NCBI GenBank assembly: GCA_022813865.1
Contig: JALDZX010000061.1
Coordinates: forward strand, 62,001 to 121,117
Origin: Xylographa opegraphella
Lineage: Eukaryota
Direction of reading: 5' to 3'
Length of the DNA stretch: 59,117 nt
Both the position numbers and the translations under genes were made by a program. Each line of letters begins with the position of its first letter. Position 1 is the stretch's first letter. A model generated the notes under the pieces. It did not search any database, was not told where the DNA came from, and saw only the letters and a program-made list of their open reading frames with translations. Positions 6,644 to 12,009 of this stretch are shown here, piece by piece.

Positions 6644-9090
6644 CTAGTATTCCGGTCTCACTGGTAACGCAGTGGCTGAGGGTTTCCGCATTCCGTTAGC
6701 GTGAATTCCATGATGCATATCTGACAAAGGTGCTTGACTTGCCTGAGTCCCACCAGGTAAAGAATGCTCGCCCTGCTGCTGATAGTACTTGGTGTAGGGA
6801 TTCTCTCCTCTCCGGATAGCAGCTTCGTCGACTTCGACACCTGGGTGTCCGTTCTCCATCAACAACCGTCGGTCTGTCGAGGCTGCTTTGCCGTCTTCGG
6901 CTACCTTGGCTTTCATGGTTTGTTGGACTGAGAAGGGTCTATTTCACCCGATTAGATCCGCAGATAGTGACAGAATAGAGGCGATTGCTTACCCGTTGAC
7001 TTCCCGGTCGAGCATCATGTACTCCTTCGCTGCCGCCTTGGTGCCCCGCTCGAGAAGATACACCATATAGTAGTGGCTTAAATCTTTCATAGTCAGCGGA
7101 GGTAGGTGACTCTTCCTCCGGATATCCTCATGCACTTGCTTGATCCGCTGATACTGTATAGCCTCACTCTCAGCGCTTGTAGGCTGCTCCAGCTCGAACA
7201 AGAGATAATTGATCCAAAATGGTCGACTGTCCAGGTACCAGTGCTGATTCTTTTGAATTACTTGACGAGCTTCATCCACCGATCCTTTGATCTTCCACAA
7301 AAGTCGTGCCCACTCTGTCACAAGAGCAGCTTTTGCGTATATGTCGCATTCCGTCGAATCAATCTGGGCTTTATAGACTGCGATAGCCGCGTCCAAACCT
7401 CCGTGACGACGAGAGAGATTGGCTAGCGATACAATTGTCTCAATATGACCTGGAAGATTGATGAGAATGGCTTGATGGATGTCTTTGGCAAGCTCGACTC
7501 GGCCACACATTTCTTCGAAGTATGCATAGTGCAAGCGAACAGCGGGCCGTGAAATTGGAGCGTAAAGCATACTGGCTCTCTGGTAAATATTTCTGACTTC
7601 CTCTTCTTTCATTGGCTGAGCAAGCATCCACCGAGCGTATCGCAACCAAAACTCGTCGTAGTAAGCACAGGTCACAAGACACCTTTCGTATAAGAATGCA
7701 GTTCTCATGTAATCACCTTCAACTTCTTCAAAGTCAAGATACTTCCGCCAGTTTACCAGTTGACCTTCGTCAAGCTCGGTGACGTGAAAGTATGGTCGCT
7801 TGACTTCCGATTCGTAGGTCCATCGTTTTGTGGTTTCAGTCTGTGTCCTGGCAAATATCTCCAGGTGAAAGTTGTCAATCCGAGTTCTCATTTCGCGCTC
7901 TATCTCGAGTTCTCCCTTTTCAACATTAATCTGTTGGGAACCGGCTTGTACAGTAGCAAGACCTTCTGTCTCGATCTCCAATCGGAATTGCGCCAATGTA
8001 TCGGCTGGAAGAAGCTCTTGGAGGGGCCGAGACTGTGCCATTTGACGATAGCGCTCAAAATAACGAGCATACTGATGCATTGGTATGTGTACTACACGGT
8101 CAAGTATGGCAAAGATCTTGTCATTTGCCTCGAGACGTTCTTCGAATTCCAGGTATTTGTCCCAGAACGGATGCGCCAAGAAATCGAGGCCCACACATGT
8201 CGCTCCTCTTTCGAATAGTCTGTTTAGCGGATTGTCAGTTCGGATCTCTCTTAGAAGGGGGAGTAGGCGCAAGGAAGAGGCAGAGAGGGCAGCAAACATG
8301 GCATATGTGATTGATCAAGTCATCTATTGCTCCGACAAAACCCATCAAACGTTACTCTCGAATGCAAAAATGTATGCCGCGGGATTGGTCAATCTAGGAT
8401 TGAAGGAAATGAAAGCGCCTGAAGTTTCAAGTGTGAGAATCAATCTCGAGGATCTGGTTGTGACTTTCTCACCCATCGACAAGCAAAGCTTGAAGCATTC
8501 CTTGTAATGTTGGTTTCAGGCTGAAGTTGCGCTGTACGTATCGTAGTTATGGGAAGGAAAGTATATCTTTCTCTACTTACTCTCGAATGACCTCAGAATC
8601 GTGGCTGGTTTCGACTTTGAAAGCGCAGTAGTTTGTCCATAGGTCGACTGAGTTGGTTATGCTTGCTACACCTCGCTCATATACCTGGTCCATATTTCAT
8701 CAGTAATAATTTCAAAATATCATACGGACGCACACGCTCACCAGCTCTGCAGCCTCAGTACCAGCTATTGAAAATTCTAAATCCGCATACTTTTTCCAAT
8801 ATCCAAATAATAGAGGAAACTTGGCGAGGAAACGATCGTAAATATCGCGTGTAGCTGCTATGGATTGAGGATTCGAGTTGCGATTGAGACCGCCTTCTAG
8901 GGACTCCGCTGCGCGAACCAACTTCTCCCAATTCTCGAAGCTATCCGGATCTTCAGCCTACAGAAATGGTAGCATTAGTATATCGTTTACAGAAACTTCC
9001 AGCACTGGGATGAAGTCGTACCACTTCGTTGTTGAGCTTCTTCAGCTCCGCGTTCTCCTCGTCCGAGCCACCGAAGCTGTAGTCAGCCAT
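6644..9090 (-). CDS. PRP39: Pre-mRNA processing factor 39, U1 snRNP HAT-repeat protein (~636 aa)
   Basis: Exons 9090-9022, 8957-8742, 8684-8581, 8219-6993, 6938-6644 total 1911 nt in frame. HAT motifs: FLAKFPLLFGYWKKYADLEF, LFERGA..GLDFLAHPFWDKYLEFEE, KRPYFHV..L...QL.NWRKYLDFEE, LYERCLV.CA.Y.EFWLRY. Confidence 0.95.
8220..8580 (-). other. Unusually long (361 nt) structured intron 3 of PRP39
   Basis: Donor GA|GTAAGT at 8580, branch-like CTGAC/CTAAAC, acceptor CAG at 8220. Splicing restores IRE-LFERGA. The other PRP39 introns are 54-64 nt. It contains complementary segments and cryptic splice sites (see findings). Confidence 0.85.
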
Positions 9091-9470: not shown

Positions 9471-12009
9471 CTATGTAATGTTCTTTTGAACTCCACCTCG
9501 TTGAGATTTCTGTTGTGCACTCTCATGTTTGCGAAGCTCCTCAGGTACACGAGATATGGAAGACTTCATGAGCATTTGCTTTAAGTCGTACCTGGAATTT
9601 GTTAGCGACTTCACAAGAAATCTGGGCGAAAGCAAGAGACTAACATAACATCCGAATCCTCATTTCCAAGGAAAGTGATGGCAACACCACTCTTGCCAGC
9701 ACGGCCTGTACGTCCAACACGATGGGTGTAGCTCTCGATATTTGTAGCCATGTTGAAGTTGACTACCAGACTCACGTCTGGTACATCTATACCGCGTCCC
9801 GCAAGATCCGTAGCCACCAAAACATCGGTAGTACCGTTACGAACGGAAGCCAGCGCGGCCTCTCTTTGTTCTTGAGTCTTGCTGCCGTGTAGTGTGACAG
9901 AAGTGAAGCCCATATGCTTGATGTCCCGCGCAACAGCATCACAGTTCCTTTTGATGTTGACAAATACAATGATTGGAGGAGCAAATTCTCGCGACGATAG
10001 AATCTCCAGAAGTCTCTTTTTCCGCTTATCTTCGCCTGCCACAAATTCGACGCGTTGCTCGACAGTCTCAACGGCTTCACCAATATTGCCAATGGTGACA
10101 ATGGCAGGTCTTCGGAGGTACTTCCTGGCTATACGTTCAACGGCAGTCGGCATAGTAGCTGTGTACATCATTGTCTGCCTATAACGGTCTTTACCACCCA
10201 AAGATTGGCTCATAACAACAGCATCCTCGGCTTCCTCTGAATCCGGCTTCATATTGGCAACAGGCAGTGCATCTAAAATCTTGTTGACCGGCTCCTCAAA
10301 ACCCAAGTCGATCATGCGGTCAGCTTCATCCATGATGACATAACAGCACTGTCCAAGCACAAGCACCCTCCTCTCGATACAGTCAACCAATCGACCTGGC
10401 GTTGCAATAATGATCTCTGCGCCGTCTCGCAGGTTGTAAGCCTGCTCTTCAAGCGAATGTCCTCCAACTATGCTAACACAAGTAAAACCAAGAGGAGTAG
10501 CGAACTTTTTAGCTTCAATCTCGATTTGTTGAGCCAATTCACGAGTAGGGGCAAGAATGATCGCGTACGGGCCATCGTTCTTGGTCAACTCATTCAGCGG
10601 AGGTAGCTCAGAAATGTAGACGAGAAGTGGCAGTAAAAACGCAGCAGTTTTACCAGATCCAGTGACTGCTACACCGATAAGATCTCGAGACTGTAAAGCG
10701 ATCGGTATAGCAGCACGTTGTACAGCAGATGGCTCGGTATATCCTACTTGATCCACAACATCCAAAAGTCGTTTCGGAAGACCGGACTCAACCCATGATC
10801 GCATAGGATTTGGTATAGAGCCACCCTTCGTACTTATATTGTAATCTTCCTTGAAAATCCTCCAATCTCGTTCGCGCATATGTTCGAGCTTCTTCTCACT
10901 CCAATGCTTGTCGATAGAACTTCGTCCACCTTCTTCTTTCCTCCTCCGCTCCATTTCCAGCATTTCCCTGGCCCTGACACCGCCTGCCTCCGGGTCACGT
11001 TCTTCCAAAGCTCTGGCATACTTCATGGCAACACCATCGGCAAGATCTTCAGCGAATCCACCTAAGCGACCCCTACCATAGAAATTCGCTTCCGCACGAG
11101 CTTGGTATAATGGATTATAGTCAGGACTTGTGTCTTCCTCAGTATTCCACTCGAAATTGAATTTCTTCTCGGTCGTACGCCTCCTTTTCTTCTTGGCGGA
11201 GAAGGTAGACTGGTTTTGCTCCGCACCCATATAGCGTTGTCGTATCAGCGCCGCTTGTGCCTCCTCAGTGGCAGGCCGTTTCTCTACTTTCCCAGTCCCG
11301 CCATTTGAGGTACCATTGACAGAAGGTCTGGGGGAAGGTGGCGGAGCCATATCGTACCCTTTGTTCGGTAATGAGGCTCGCATGGCAGCAGGGCCAGTAG
11401 GTATCTCCCCAACTCGTAGCGCACGAGGTCCCGTCGGTATCGACAGAGATCCGGCTCCATTGACGGGCATGGTTGATGGAGGTAATGAGCCGTGACCATT
11501 CTGCTTTGGAATGGATGTTTTCCCGTTTGTGGTCGGCTTCGTTGCGATCTTCTCGGCCTCGACCTTCTTCTTCTGGTCCTCTATCTCCTTCGCGCGTCTC
11601 TCAAGGGCTAACTTCTCTCGTTGGGCTTTCGACAAGAATTTGGGCTAGAATGTCCACACCATTAGTAGGGTTCGCATAGGTACTAGAATATGAGTGACGT
11701 GAATAAAGATATCTTCAAGATGGGTATGGCGTTTAGACATACTTTCGCAGCTGCCTCATCAGCTTCCCGCTTCTTTCTCAGAATTTCTTCAACGCTGAGA
11801 GGCTGTCGAGCGCTGGAAGCCCATCCCGACTTCTTCCTTTTGACCTCTACTGGTGGAGGAGGAGGCGGTACATCACTGCCGGGCGGAGGTGGCGGAGGAA
11901 GGTCTTCTGGTGGCGGAGGAGGAGCTATGTATTCTGGAGGTGGAGGAGGGGCTAGATCCATAGGGGGAGGTGGCGGAATAACGTCGCCGTTGGTGAGATG
12001 TTCATTCAT
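9471..12009 (-). CDS. PRP28: Pre-mRNA splicing DEAD-box helicase Prp28 (~795 aa)
   Basis: Exons 12009-11743, 11644-9645, 9591-9471 (2388 nt). Motifs AVTGSGKT, PTRELA, DEAD, TAT, HRVGRTGRAG. Prp28-specific KFNFEW..EDTS and HWSEKKL..MRERDWRIFKED; Pro-rich N-terminus. Confidence 0.96.

Follow-up and report, generated by a model that had tools for sequence, protein, structure and literature searches.

A long intron in the PRP39 gene of Xylographa opegraphella and its candidate poison exon

In animals and in plants, it is well established that the levels of core splicing factors are kept in balance by means of unproductive splicing. In this work, we focus on a possible fungal case, intron 3 of the PRP39 gene of Xylographa opegraphella, which lies on the minus strand of a stretch of 59,117 nucleotides (contig JALDZX010000061.1, positions 62,001 to 121,117; hereafter the window, in whose coordinates all positions are given). 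The best explanation of this intron appears to be that it is a composite one, under evolutionary constraint, and not filler. Its best single reading would be that of a regulated poison exon, and we hold this reading tentatively, as a serious possibility that stops short of being probable.

The closest described system is the plant strucRNA 45ABC, which is found in the RBP45 genes (homologues of Nam8/TIA-1, that is, U1 auxiliary factors) and through which a U1 auxiliary factor regulates itself negatively (PMC13485355, available part). Going by that part of the report, 45ABC and the PRP39 candidate have in common a long intron, a gene for a U1-associated factor and a cassette exon that introduces a premature termination codon (PTC). 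Both also have two hairpins: in PRP39, the predicted exon hairpin starts 11 nt past the second candidate acceptor, and the next stem holds the candidate donor. The proposed logic would be similar as well, the factor promoting an internal donor, which leads to an unproductive mRNA and to a negative feedback. In contrast with 45ABC, the gene is PRP39 and not RBP45, it belongs to another kingdom and no sequence relationship is expected, and the structure of the PRP39 intron is no better than that of shuffled sequences.

Within the gene family itself, mouse and human PRPF39 contain an alternative exon with conserved flanks that induces nonsense-mediated decay and is proposed to tune the amount of functional protein (PMC6582350, available part). 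A preliminary description of the window had called upon this mammalian poison exon as background, and the paper confirms it. The PRP39 candidate belongs to the same gene family and likewise contains a PTC. 45ABC has 448 matches spread over 112 species and was put to the test with compensatory mutations and reporters (PMC13485355, same part), and the mammalian exon is backed by reverse transcription polymerase chain reaction and cycloheximide treatment (PMC6582350, same part), whereas the PRP39 candidate is known from sequence alone. The two PRP39-family exons are likely to be of independent origin, because the fungal one seems to derive from a local duplication of exon 3.

Concerning fungi, literature searches (supplements set aside) gave no report of such a regulation for PRP39, nothing comparable for filamentous fungi and no paper linking poison exons and Pezizomycotina. 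Neurospora prp39 is found among the mRNAs that are raised on exosome knock-down, in a report whose available part makes no mention of its splicing (PMC4549623). If the PRP39 cassette is real, fungi would be a third kingdom in which U1 auxiliary factors limit themselves with the same device, and we would have a concrete case of a poison exon that comes from a tandem exon duplication.

The candidate cassette exon and its conservation

The introns of PRP39 measure, in order, 64, 57, 361 and 54 nt, and the third is thus about six times as long as its neighbours, as the preliminary description had pointed out. That description had also placed in it two cryptic acceptors and a donor, delimiting either a poison exon or an in-frame insert of 16 codons, and all of these can indeed be read at their places:

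8684-8581, minus strand: PRP39 exon 3, 104 nt, ending in phase 2 (...ATT CGA GA)
8580-8220, minus strand: PRP39 intron 3, 361 nt, with GTAAGT at 8580-8575, the branch motif CTGAC at 8238-8234 and CAG at 8222-8220
8219-6993, minus strand: PRP39 exon 4, over which the protein P0002 is 100% identical
8536-8532, minus strand: candidate acceptor 1, TACAG, leaving an upstream intron of 49 nt
8525-8521, minus strand: candidate acceptor 2, TTCAG, leaving an upstream intron of 60 nt
8472-8467, minus strand: candidate donor GTGAGA (GG/GTGAGA, the slash marking the splice site), the sole internal GTRNG of intron 3
8531-8473 (59 nt) or 8520-8473 (48 nt), minus strand: candidate cassette exon, from splicing and translation in silico

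Splicing in silico turns the 59-nt form into ...IR D A T S A, ended by the TGA of 8518-8516, a premature stop that lies upstream of the later junctions. The 48-nt form adds 16 codons, in frame and free of stops, and the corresponding residues would interrupt the conserved ...IRE/LFERG... helix of a HAT repeat. The upstream mini-introns of 49 or 60 nt are near the size of the genuine local introns (53-64 nt), and the candidate donor matches local usage, the constitutive donor of intron 2 being TG/GTGAGC. It is the 59-nt stop form that is obtained from the first AG after the putative branch site.

The layout was compared with 2000 dinucleotide shuffles in which the real ends of intron 3 were kept and its interior was shuffled. 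A pseudo-exon was counted as comparable if it had an upstream intron of 45-80 nt, a TRAY 8-40 nt before its acceptor and a donor 25-120 nt further on. At least one was found in 5.0% of the shuffles with a GTRNG donor and in 2.4% with GTRAG; as these criteria were chosen post hoc, which has to be held against the poison exon, this rarity brings modest support. An alternative 3' splice site at the TAG of 8326-8324, which would give an immediate stop, was rejected because its AG is not kept in the relative P0044.

The conservation of the intron could be followed thanks to incidental open reading frames (ORFs) whose translations are present in protein sets, third (wobble) positions being invisible by this means. 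This way of reading intron conservation from the translations of "junk" ORFs in metagenome protein sets may be reusable where fungal DNA collections are lacking. On the plus strand, an ORF of 143 codons (8076-8507) runs antisense across the start of exon 4 and most of intron 3, and three relatives of it are informative. P0122 covers 8256-8504 and P0123 covers 8370-8543, and both align without indels; P0125, a more distant relative, was aligned with a frameshift-aware script, which needed several frameshifts and gives an uncertain alignment. One zone stands out in the first two:

8388-8543, minus strand: little-changed zone, with codon differences of 2/39 in P0122 and 3/52 in P0123 (5/91 together)

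In P0122 and P0123, change within intron 3 is lowest over the candidate exon and the sequence on either side of it. By comparison, the differences in 8256-8387 amount to 11/44 codons in P0122 and to 3/6 in P0123 (14/50 together), which gives Fisher p values of 0.016 and 0.011 respectively, for a boundary at 8388 that was set after inspection of the data and for a low change that is gauged against the adjoining intron and not against neutral divergence. In addition, P0122 and P0123 are not independent, because two changes are common to both. The more variable 8256-8387 contains the deeply conserved cores described below, and therefore the low rate from 8388 onwards argues for constraint over kinship. 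At the splice sites, the Ser-Pro codons that span the donor at 8472 are the same in P0122, P0123 and P0125, with the U of the GU at a wobble position, and the codons over both acceptors are unchanged in P0123, whose translation leaves g8532 of acceptor 1 unconstrained. In P0125, the entire intron can be aligned, at about 50-60% codon identity, and 13/22 codons are kept without frameshift in the neighbourhood of the donor (8430-8495).

A probable exon-3-like copy inside the intron

The 3' boundary of the little-changed zone falls within a second feature, which the preliminary description had missed:

8478-8352, minus strand: putative copy of exon 3 plus GTAA, decayed but collinear, in which the 13-mer CATTCGAGAGTAA at 8364-8352 equals the genuine junction of 8589-8577

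Compared with the window by blastn, intron 3 returned this 13-mer as an exact repeat of the final 9 nt of exon 3 and the GTAA after them, and the exon 3/intron 3 junction, CATTCGAGA/GTAA, is consequently found a second time at the 3' end of the segment. In a permissive local alignment, exon 3 plus GTAA (8675-8577) is collinear with 8478-8352 on the same strand. The score of 19.5, as against 11.2 +/- 2.0 for shuffles, was reached by 3/1000 shuffles and matched by 1/1485 natural windows of 108 nt, while three control regions gave p values of 0.35, 0.35 and 0.68. Once the 13-mer is removed, the upstream part scores 16.5 (p 0.012). The copy is about 60% identical to exon 3 and badly decayed, with stops and indels. 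Two unrelated loci of the window score 20-23 in permissive alignments with the copy, which speaks against the duplication and makes it likely and not proven; we consider that 8478-8352 probably arose as a tandem copy of exon 3 and its 5' splice junction and then decayed. The duplication could not be traced into intron 2, as the end of exon 2 plus intron 2 scores 7.0 against 8576-8470, a value equalled by 99.6% of shuffles. The origin of the intron in a repeat or transposon was rejected, since blastn of the intron against the window gave only its own 13-mer and chance words of 11-12 nt; permissive repeat scans of the intron against the window likewise gave chance-level alignments.

Alternative or poison exons are reportedly born by tandem exon duplication, as Kondrashov and Koonin in 2001 and Letunic et al. 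in 2002 are said to have described. Like such exons, the copy in PRP39 is adjacent, collinear and on the same strand, and it includes the 5' splice junction. Unlike them, it is decayed, its support is statistical only (p about 0.001-0.01) and it does not coincide with the exon: the candidate exon ends, with its donor at 8472, where the copy has its 5' edge. Exon 3 is 104 nt long, which is not a multiple of three, and therefore the inclusion of both copies would shift the frame. P0125 has a change at the -3 position of the duplicate junction. An exact copy of the intron's own 5' splice junction merits study even with an unused cassette.

The hexamer TCGAGA occurs three times on the minus strand, at the end of exon 3 (8586-8581), in the loop of the donor hairpin (8449-8444) and in the duplicate junction (8361-8356). 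Some hexamer is expected three times in about 370 nt about half the time, and this triplicate is probably due to chance.

The conserved block, the proposed mechanism and its rivals

The 3' half of the intron holds a further element, which lies outside the coordinates of the preliminary description and was not part of it:

8345-8285, minus strand: conserved intronic block, with the cores GTCGGAGCA (8336-8328) and CATGTTTGCTGCC (8300-8288), followed by a C/U-rich tract to about 8253

Among the 120 PRP39 matches listed, 27 are ORF-style predictions, to which the 3' end of the orthologous intron contributes 15-60 residues. The translation starts with MFA or MFD in 19 of these 27, the core then being 26-29 codons before exon 4; three others contain [YH]VC[CL]P, two contain SCLL and three have none of these motifs. 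All of these motifs correspond to one DNA, CATGTTTGCTGCC, in three frames, and the fact that it is kept although it is read in three frames points to a non-coding block, whose core is retained in 24/27 relatives, to as low as 76% PRP39 identity. It also follows that the long intron is a clade feature and not an accident of one genome. The second core, GTCGGAGCA, is equally spaced in P0044 and P0078, and 9/9 codons match at 8271-8297 in P0125. No known motif or family was recognised in the block with Rfam or with a scan for C boxes. An element of about 60 nt that is conserved across a class of lichen fungi is worth study even if the cassette is never used.

These elements can be assembled into a possible mechanism. 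The 5' half of the intron (about 8546-8388) would contain a latent cassette exon, with its acceptors at 8532/8521 and its donor at 8472; the portion 8478-8352 would come from the tandem copy of exon 3, the duplication being the raw material of the cassette; and the 3' half would contain the separate block that is conserved across lichen-forming relatives. Inclusion of the cassette would bring in a premature stop (59 nt) or split a HAT helix with 16 residues (48 nt), and the mRNA would be unproductive either way. This unproductive splicing, regulated and normally minor, would trim the PRP39 output. We infer the inclusion of the exon, the decay of its product and the role of Prp39 or U1 as the sensor: their abundance would favour the internal donor and thus create a negative feedback. 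Such an input is plausible because human PRPF39 promotes the use of weak 5' splice sites (PMC9808567, available part). One can go further and see in PRP39 a fungal counterpart of 45ABC, that is, an exon-3-derived poison cassette with a hairpin donor through which U1/Prp39 abundance would set its own splicing, with the duplicate 5' splice junction downstream, beside the block conserved across Lecanoromycetes. This extended version is improbable as a whole; were it true, the structure-gated self-regulation of U1 auxiliary factors would have arisen independently in plants, animals and fungi.

Several observations weigh against the poison exon. Cassette exons are uncommon in filamentous ascomycetes. 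No CTRAY branch motif is found in the mini-intron 8580-8521, where the best candidate is ATAAC, while CTRAY is present in all 5 genuine introns that were read. In the uncertain alignment of P0125, the TGA of the stop form apparently becomes CGA, the -3 C of acceptor 2 apparently becomes A, and indels of 1 nt and of 2 nt fall inside the candidate exon. The G of the GT in the duplicate junction is lost in P0122. To these must be added the folding of the region.

5' splice sites masked by local stems are known from MAPT exon 10, from the terminal stem-loop TSL2 of SMN2 and from the introns with thiamine pyrophosphate (TPP) riboswitches of fungi and plants. The TPP case is also cited in the available part of PMC13485355. 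The preliminary description had proposed that three nested stems lock the splice sites of the cassette. These stems and the hairpin that is predicted in their midst are the following:

8520-8515/8423-8418, minus strand: outer stem, perfect Watson-Crick complements
8494-8489/8431-8426, minus strand: middle stem, perfect Watson-Crick complements
8472-8466/8439-8433, minus strand: donor stem, perfect Watson-Crick complements
8509-8474, minus strand: predicted hairpin inside the candidate exon (minimum free energy, MFE, and centroid folds), ending 1 nt before the donor

The pairings thus exist as complements, and two of the stems are also predicted, whichever of four context lengths (103, 159, 361 or 565 nt) is folded: the outer one with pair probabilities of 0.65-0.98, and the donor stem with 0.45-0.70 for its first six pairs and 0.23-0.33 for the seventh. 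The middle stem has a pair probability of 0.00 in all four contexts and, by these predictions, should be dropped from the model. The three-stem structure reaches -10.2 kcal/mol, as compared with an MFE of -25.2 over the same 103 nt. The consensus fold that is predicted for the 126-nt region, both as MFE and as centroid, consists instead of the outer stem, the exon-internal hairpin and a donor hairpin. Neither the fold of the whole intron 3 (z +0.27, 58/100 shuffles being as stable) nor that of the 126-nt region (z -1.14, 23/200) is more stable than shuffles would allow, and the donor is buried at least equally in 22% of 400 shuffles in which it was held fixed. With ordinary stability and burial and a middle stem at 0, nothing sets the three-stem lock statistically apart from shuffles, and the proposed stem switch is unproven.

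The first six nucleotides of the candidate donor are nonetheless predicted to be mostly paired, like those of stem-masked donors, with a mean unpaired probability of 0.105 from +1 to +6 and values that never exceed 0.06 at +1 and +2, whichever of the contexts is folded, and a donor hairpin may modulate the access to this donor. What sets the candidate apart from the masked donors, besides the shuffles, is that no ligand or sensor is identified and that Rfam found no riboswitch in the window. As for the relatives, the substitutions inferred from their translations fall in a bulge (8478) and in the loop (8493) of the exon hairpin and break its pairs at 8507, 8495 and 8475, the last three without visible compensation. 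No covariation was seen, the 38 stem nucleotides all being without visible change in the translations of P0122 and P0123; at 8466/8439, P0125 may have U-A in place of A-U, a swap that amino acids cannot resolve.

Much of this would be expected if the intron were a neutral relic, lengthened by the tandem duplication of exon 3, in which the splice-like motifs and the stems are due to chance and the low divergence to kinship or to the local rate. This alternative is unlikely, though by no means negligible. An exon-3-like copy is indeed present, the stems and the burial of the donor are inside the range of shuffles, the mini-intron lacks a canonical branch site, and every test that speaks for a function was made post hoc. 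In P0125, moreover, the region singled out by the preliminary description is no better kept than the rest of the intron (about 55% codon identity vs about 50%), which counts against the poison exon as well. What a relic explains poorly is the contrast within P0122: 8256-8387 changes markedly despite its deep cores, and the near absence of change from 8388 onwards is hard to obtain by kinship alone. Nor would an old copy of about 60% identity be expected to retain a perfect 13-nt junction, and the layout of the pseudo-exon is rare in shuffles.

Constraint could also be there for another function, the cassette being never used and the deep block being the main player. Intron retention, and not exon skipping, is the usual mode in fungi, and translation that reads through into a retained intron 3 stops at once (GAG TAA). 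The control of whole-intron retention is one candidate function, next to a protein platform or splicing enhancer for the long intron and a DNA-level regulatory element. Such a function would fit the presence of the block in 24/27 relatives, its fixed distance to the 3' splice site in the 19 predictions that start at its ATG, and also the constraint in 8388-8543. PRPF39 binds RNA that is C/G-rich and A-poor (PMC9808567, available part), and the tract behind the block is rich in C/U and poor in A. However, the block matches no known motif or family, and this alternative leaves unexplained why the sole internal donor stands suitably behind two acceptors that give normal-sized introns. We regard it as a doubtful replacement for the poison exon, albeit one to be taken seriously.

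The 48-nt form could in principle be a coding micro-exon that adds 16 residues to one Prp39 isoform. It keeps the frame and has no stop, and the 6 visible substitutions in 8473-8520 among the three relatives never touch the second position of the 48-nt frame, 4 being third-position and synonymous and 2 being Leu to Val/Ile by parsimony, whereas 8/12 of the changed P0122 codons outside the exon involve the second position, again by parsimony. This sample of substitutions is tiny and its members are not independent. The insert would split IRELFERG, which is contiguous in mouse PRPF39 and in 34/35 full-length orthologue models among the 120 matches listed, the insert being present in none of them; P0125 has its two indels inside the exon; and the first AG past the putative branch leads to the stop form. 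An isoform of this kind is very improbable.

Equally implausible is that the intron hosts a small RNA gene, such as a small nucleolar RNA (snoRNA), or a protein gene on the opposite strand (plus-strand ORF 8076-8507). Conserved blocks in a long intron would suit such a host role, and the block ends about 65 nt ahead of the 3' splice site, where intronic box C/D snoRNAs are typically placed; the antisense ORF of 143 codons is open here and partly open in relatives. Yet at gathering score Rfam gave 0 matches over the entire window. With the limit relaxed to an E of 10, 8150-8650 gave only snoU25, WT1-AS and a CRISPR repeat (E 2.8-8.6), which we regard as noise, the best snoRNA match having an E of 7.8. 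A box C/D snoRNA would need a C box (RUGAUGA), a D box (CUGA) at a distance of 55-160 nt from it and a terminal stem. No C-box-like motif (at most 1 mismatch) is present on either strand of 8200-8600, and the ATG within a TGATGG motif is changed in P0122. The box C/D snoRNA was dropped on these grounds; an H/ACA RNA in intron 3 is not formally excluded. The antisense ORF was rejected as a gene because its starts and stops vary among the relatives and P0125 needs frameshifts. On the sense strand, the ORF 8348-8515 gave no candidates when used as a protein query.

The PRP39 gene model and its surroundings

The gene that hosts the intron is, by its domains and alignments, the PRP39 orthologue, in agreement with the preliminary description. 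It consists of five exons:

9090-9022, minus strand: PRP39 exon 1
8957-8742, minus strand: PRP39 exon 2
8684-8581, minus strand: PRP39 exon 3
8219-6993, minus strand: PRP39 exon 4
6938-6647, minus strand: PRP39 exon 5

The spliced model, read from the sequence, has 636 aa, which is also the length of P0002 ("hypothetical protein MMC26_006542 [Xylographa opegraphella]"), with 100% identity across exon 4. N- and C-terminal HAT repeats of PRP39 were detected with Pfam, and the best solved relative is mouse PRPF39 (6g70, E 1.3e-66), to which the exon 3/4 junction aligns without gap. The 35th full-length model, P0032 of Trichoglossum hirsutum, has about 32 residues unlike the conserved exon 3 immediately before LFERG, and its exon 3 looks mis-modelled, in another reading frame.

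A scan of bacterial and archaeal genomes for PRP39 gave one real match, L001 (1-7194 of CAVOUW010000002.1, titled as an uncultured delta proteobacterium metagenome-assembled genome). Its composition passes at about 2890 from a bacterial-like G+C of about 60% to about 48%, and the latter part encodes a fungal PRP39 of 71% identity with fungal-type introns; by this composition and content, L001 is a chimeric assembly or a contaminated bin. Its fungal part includes only about 100 nt upstream of the orthologous 3' splice site and does not reach the region of the candidate exon, and the remnant of the intron has no significant similarity to intron 3 of the window.

Directly upstream of PRP39 lies a gene on the minus strand (9614-11644) with a 53-nt intron and with DEAD, Helicase_C and DDX23-like domains, which is therefore Prp28-like. 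The two splicing-factor genes stand head to tail, about 380 nt apart.

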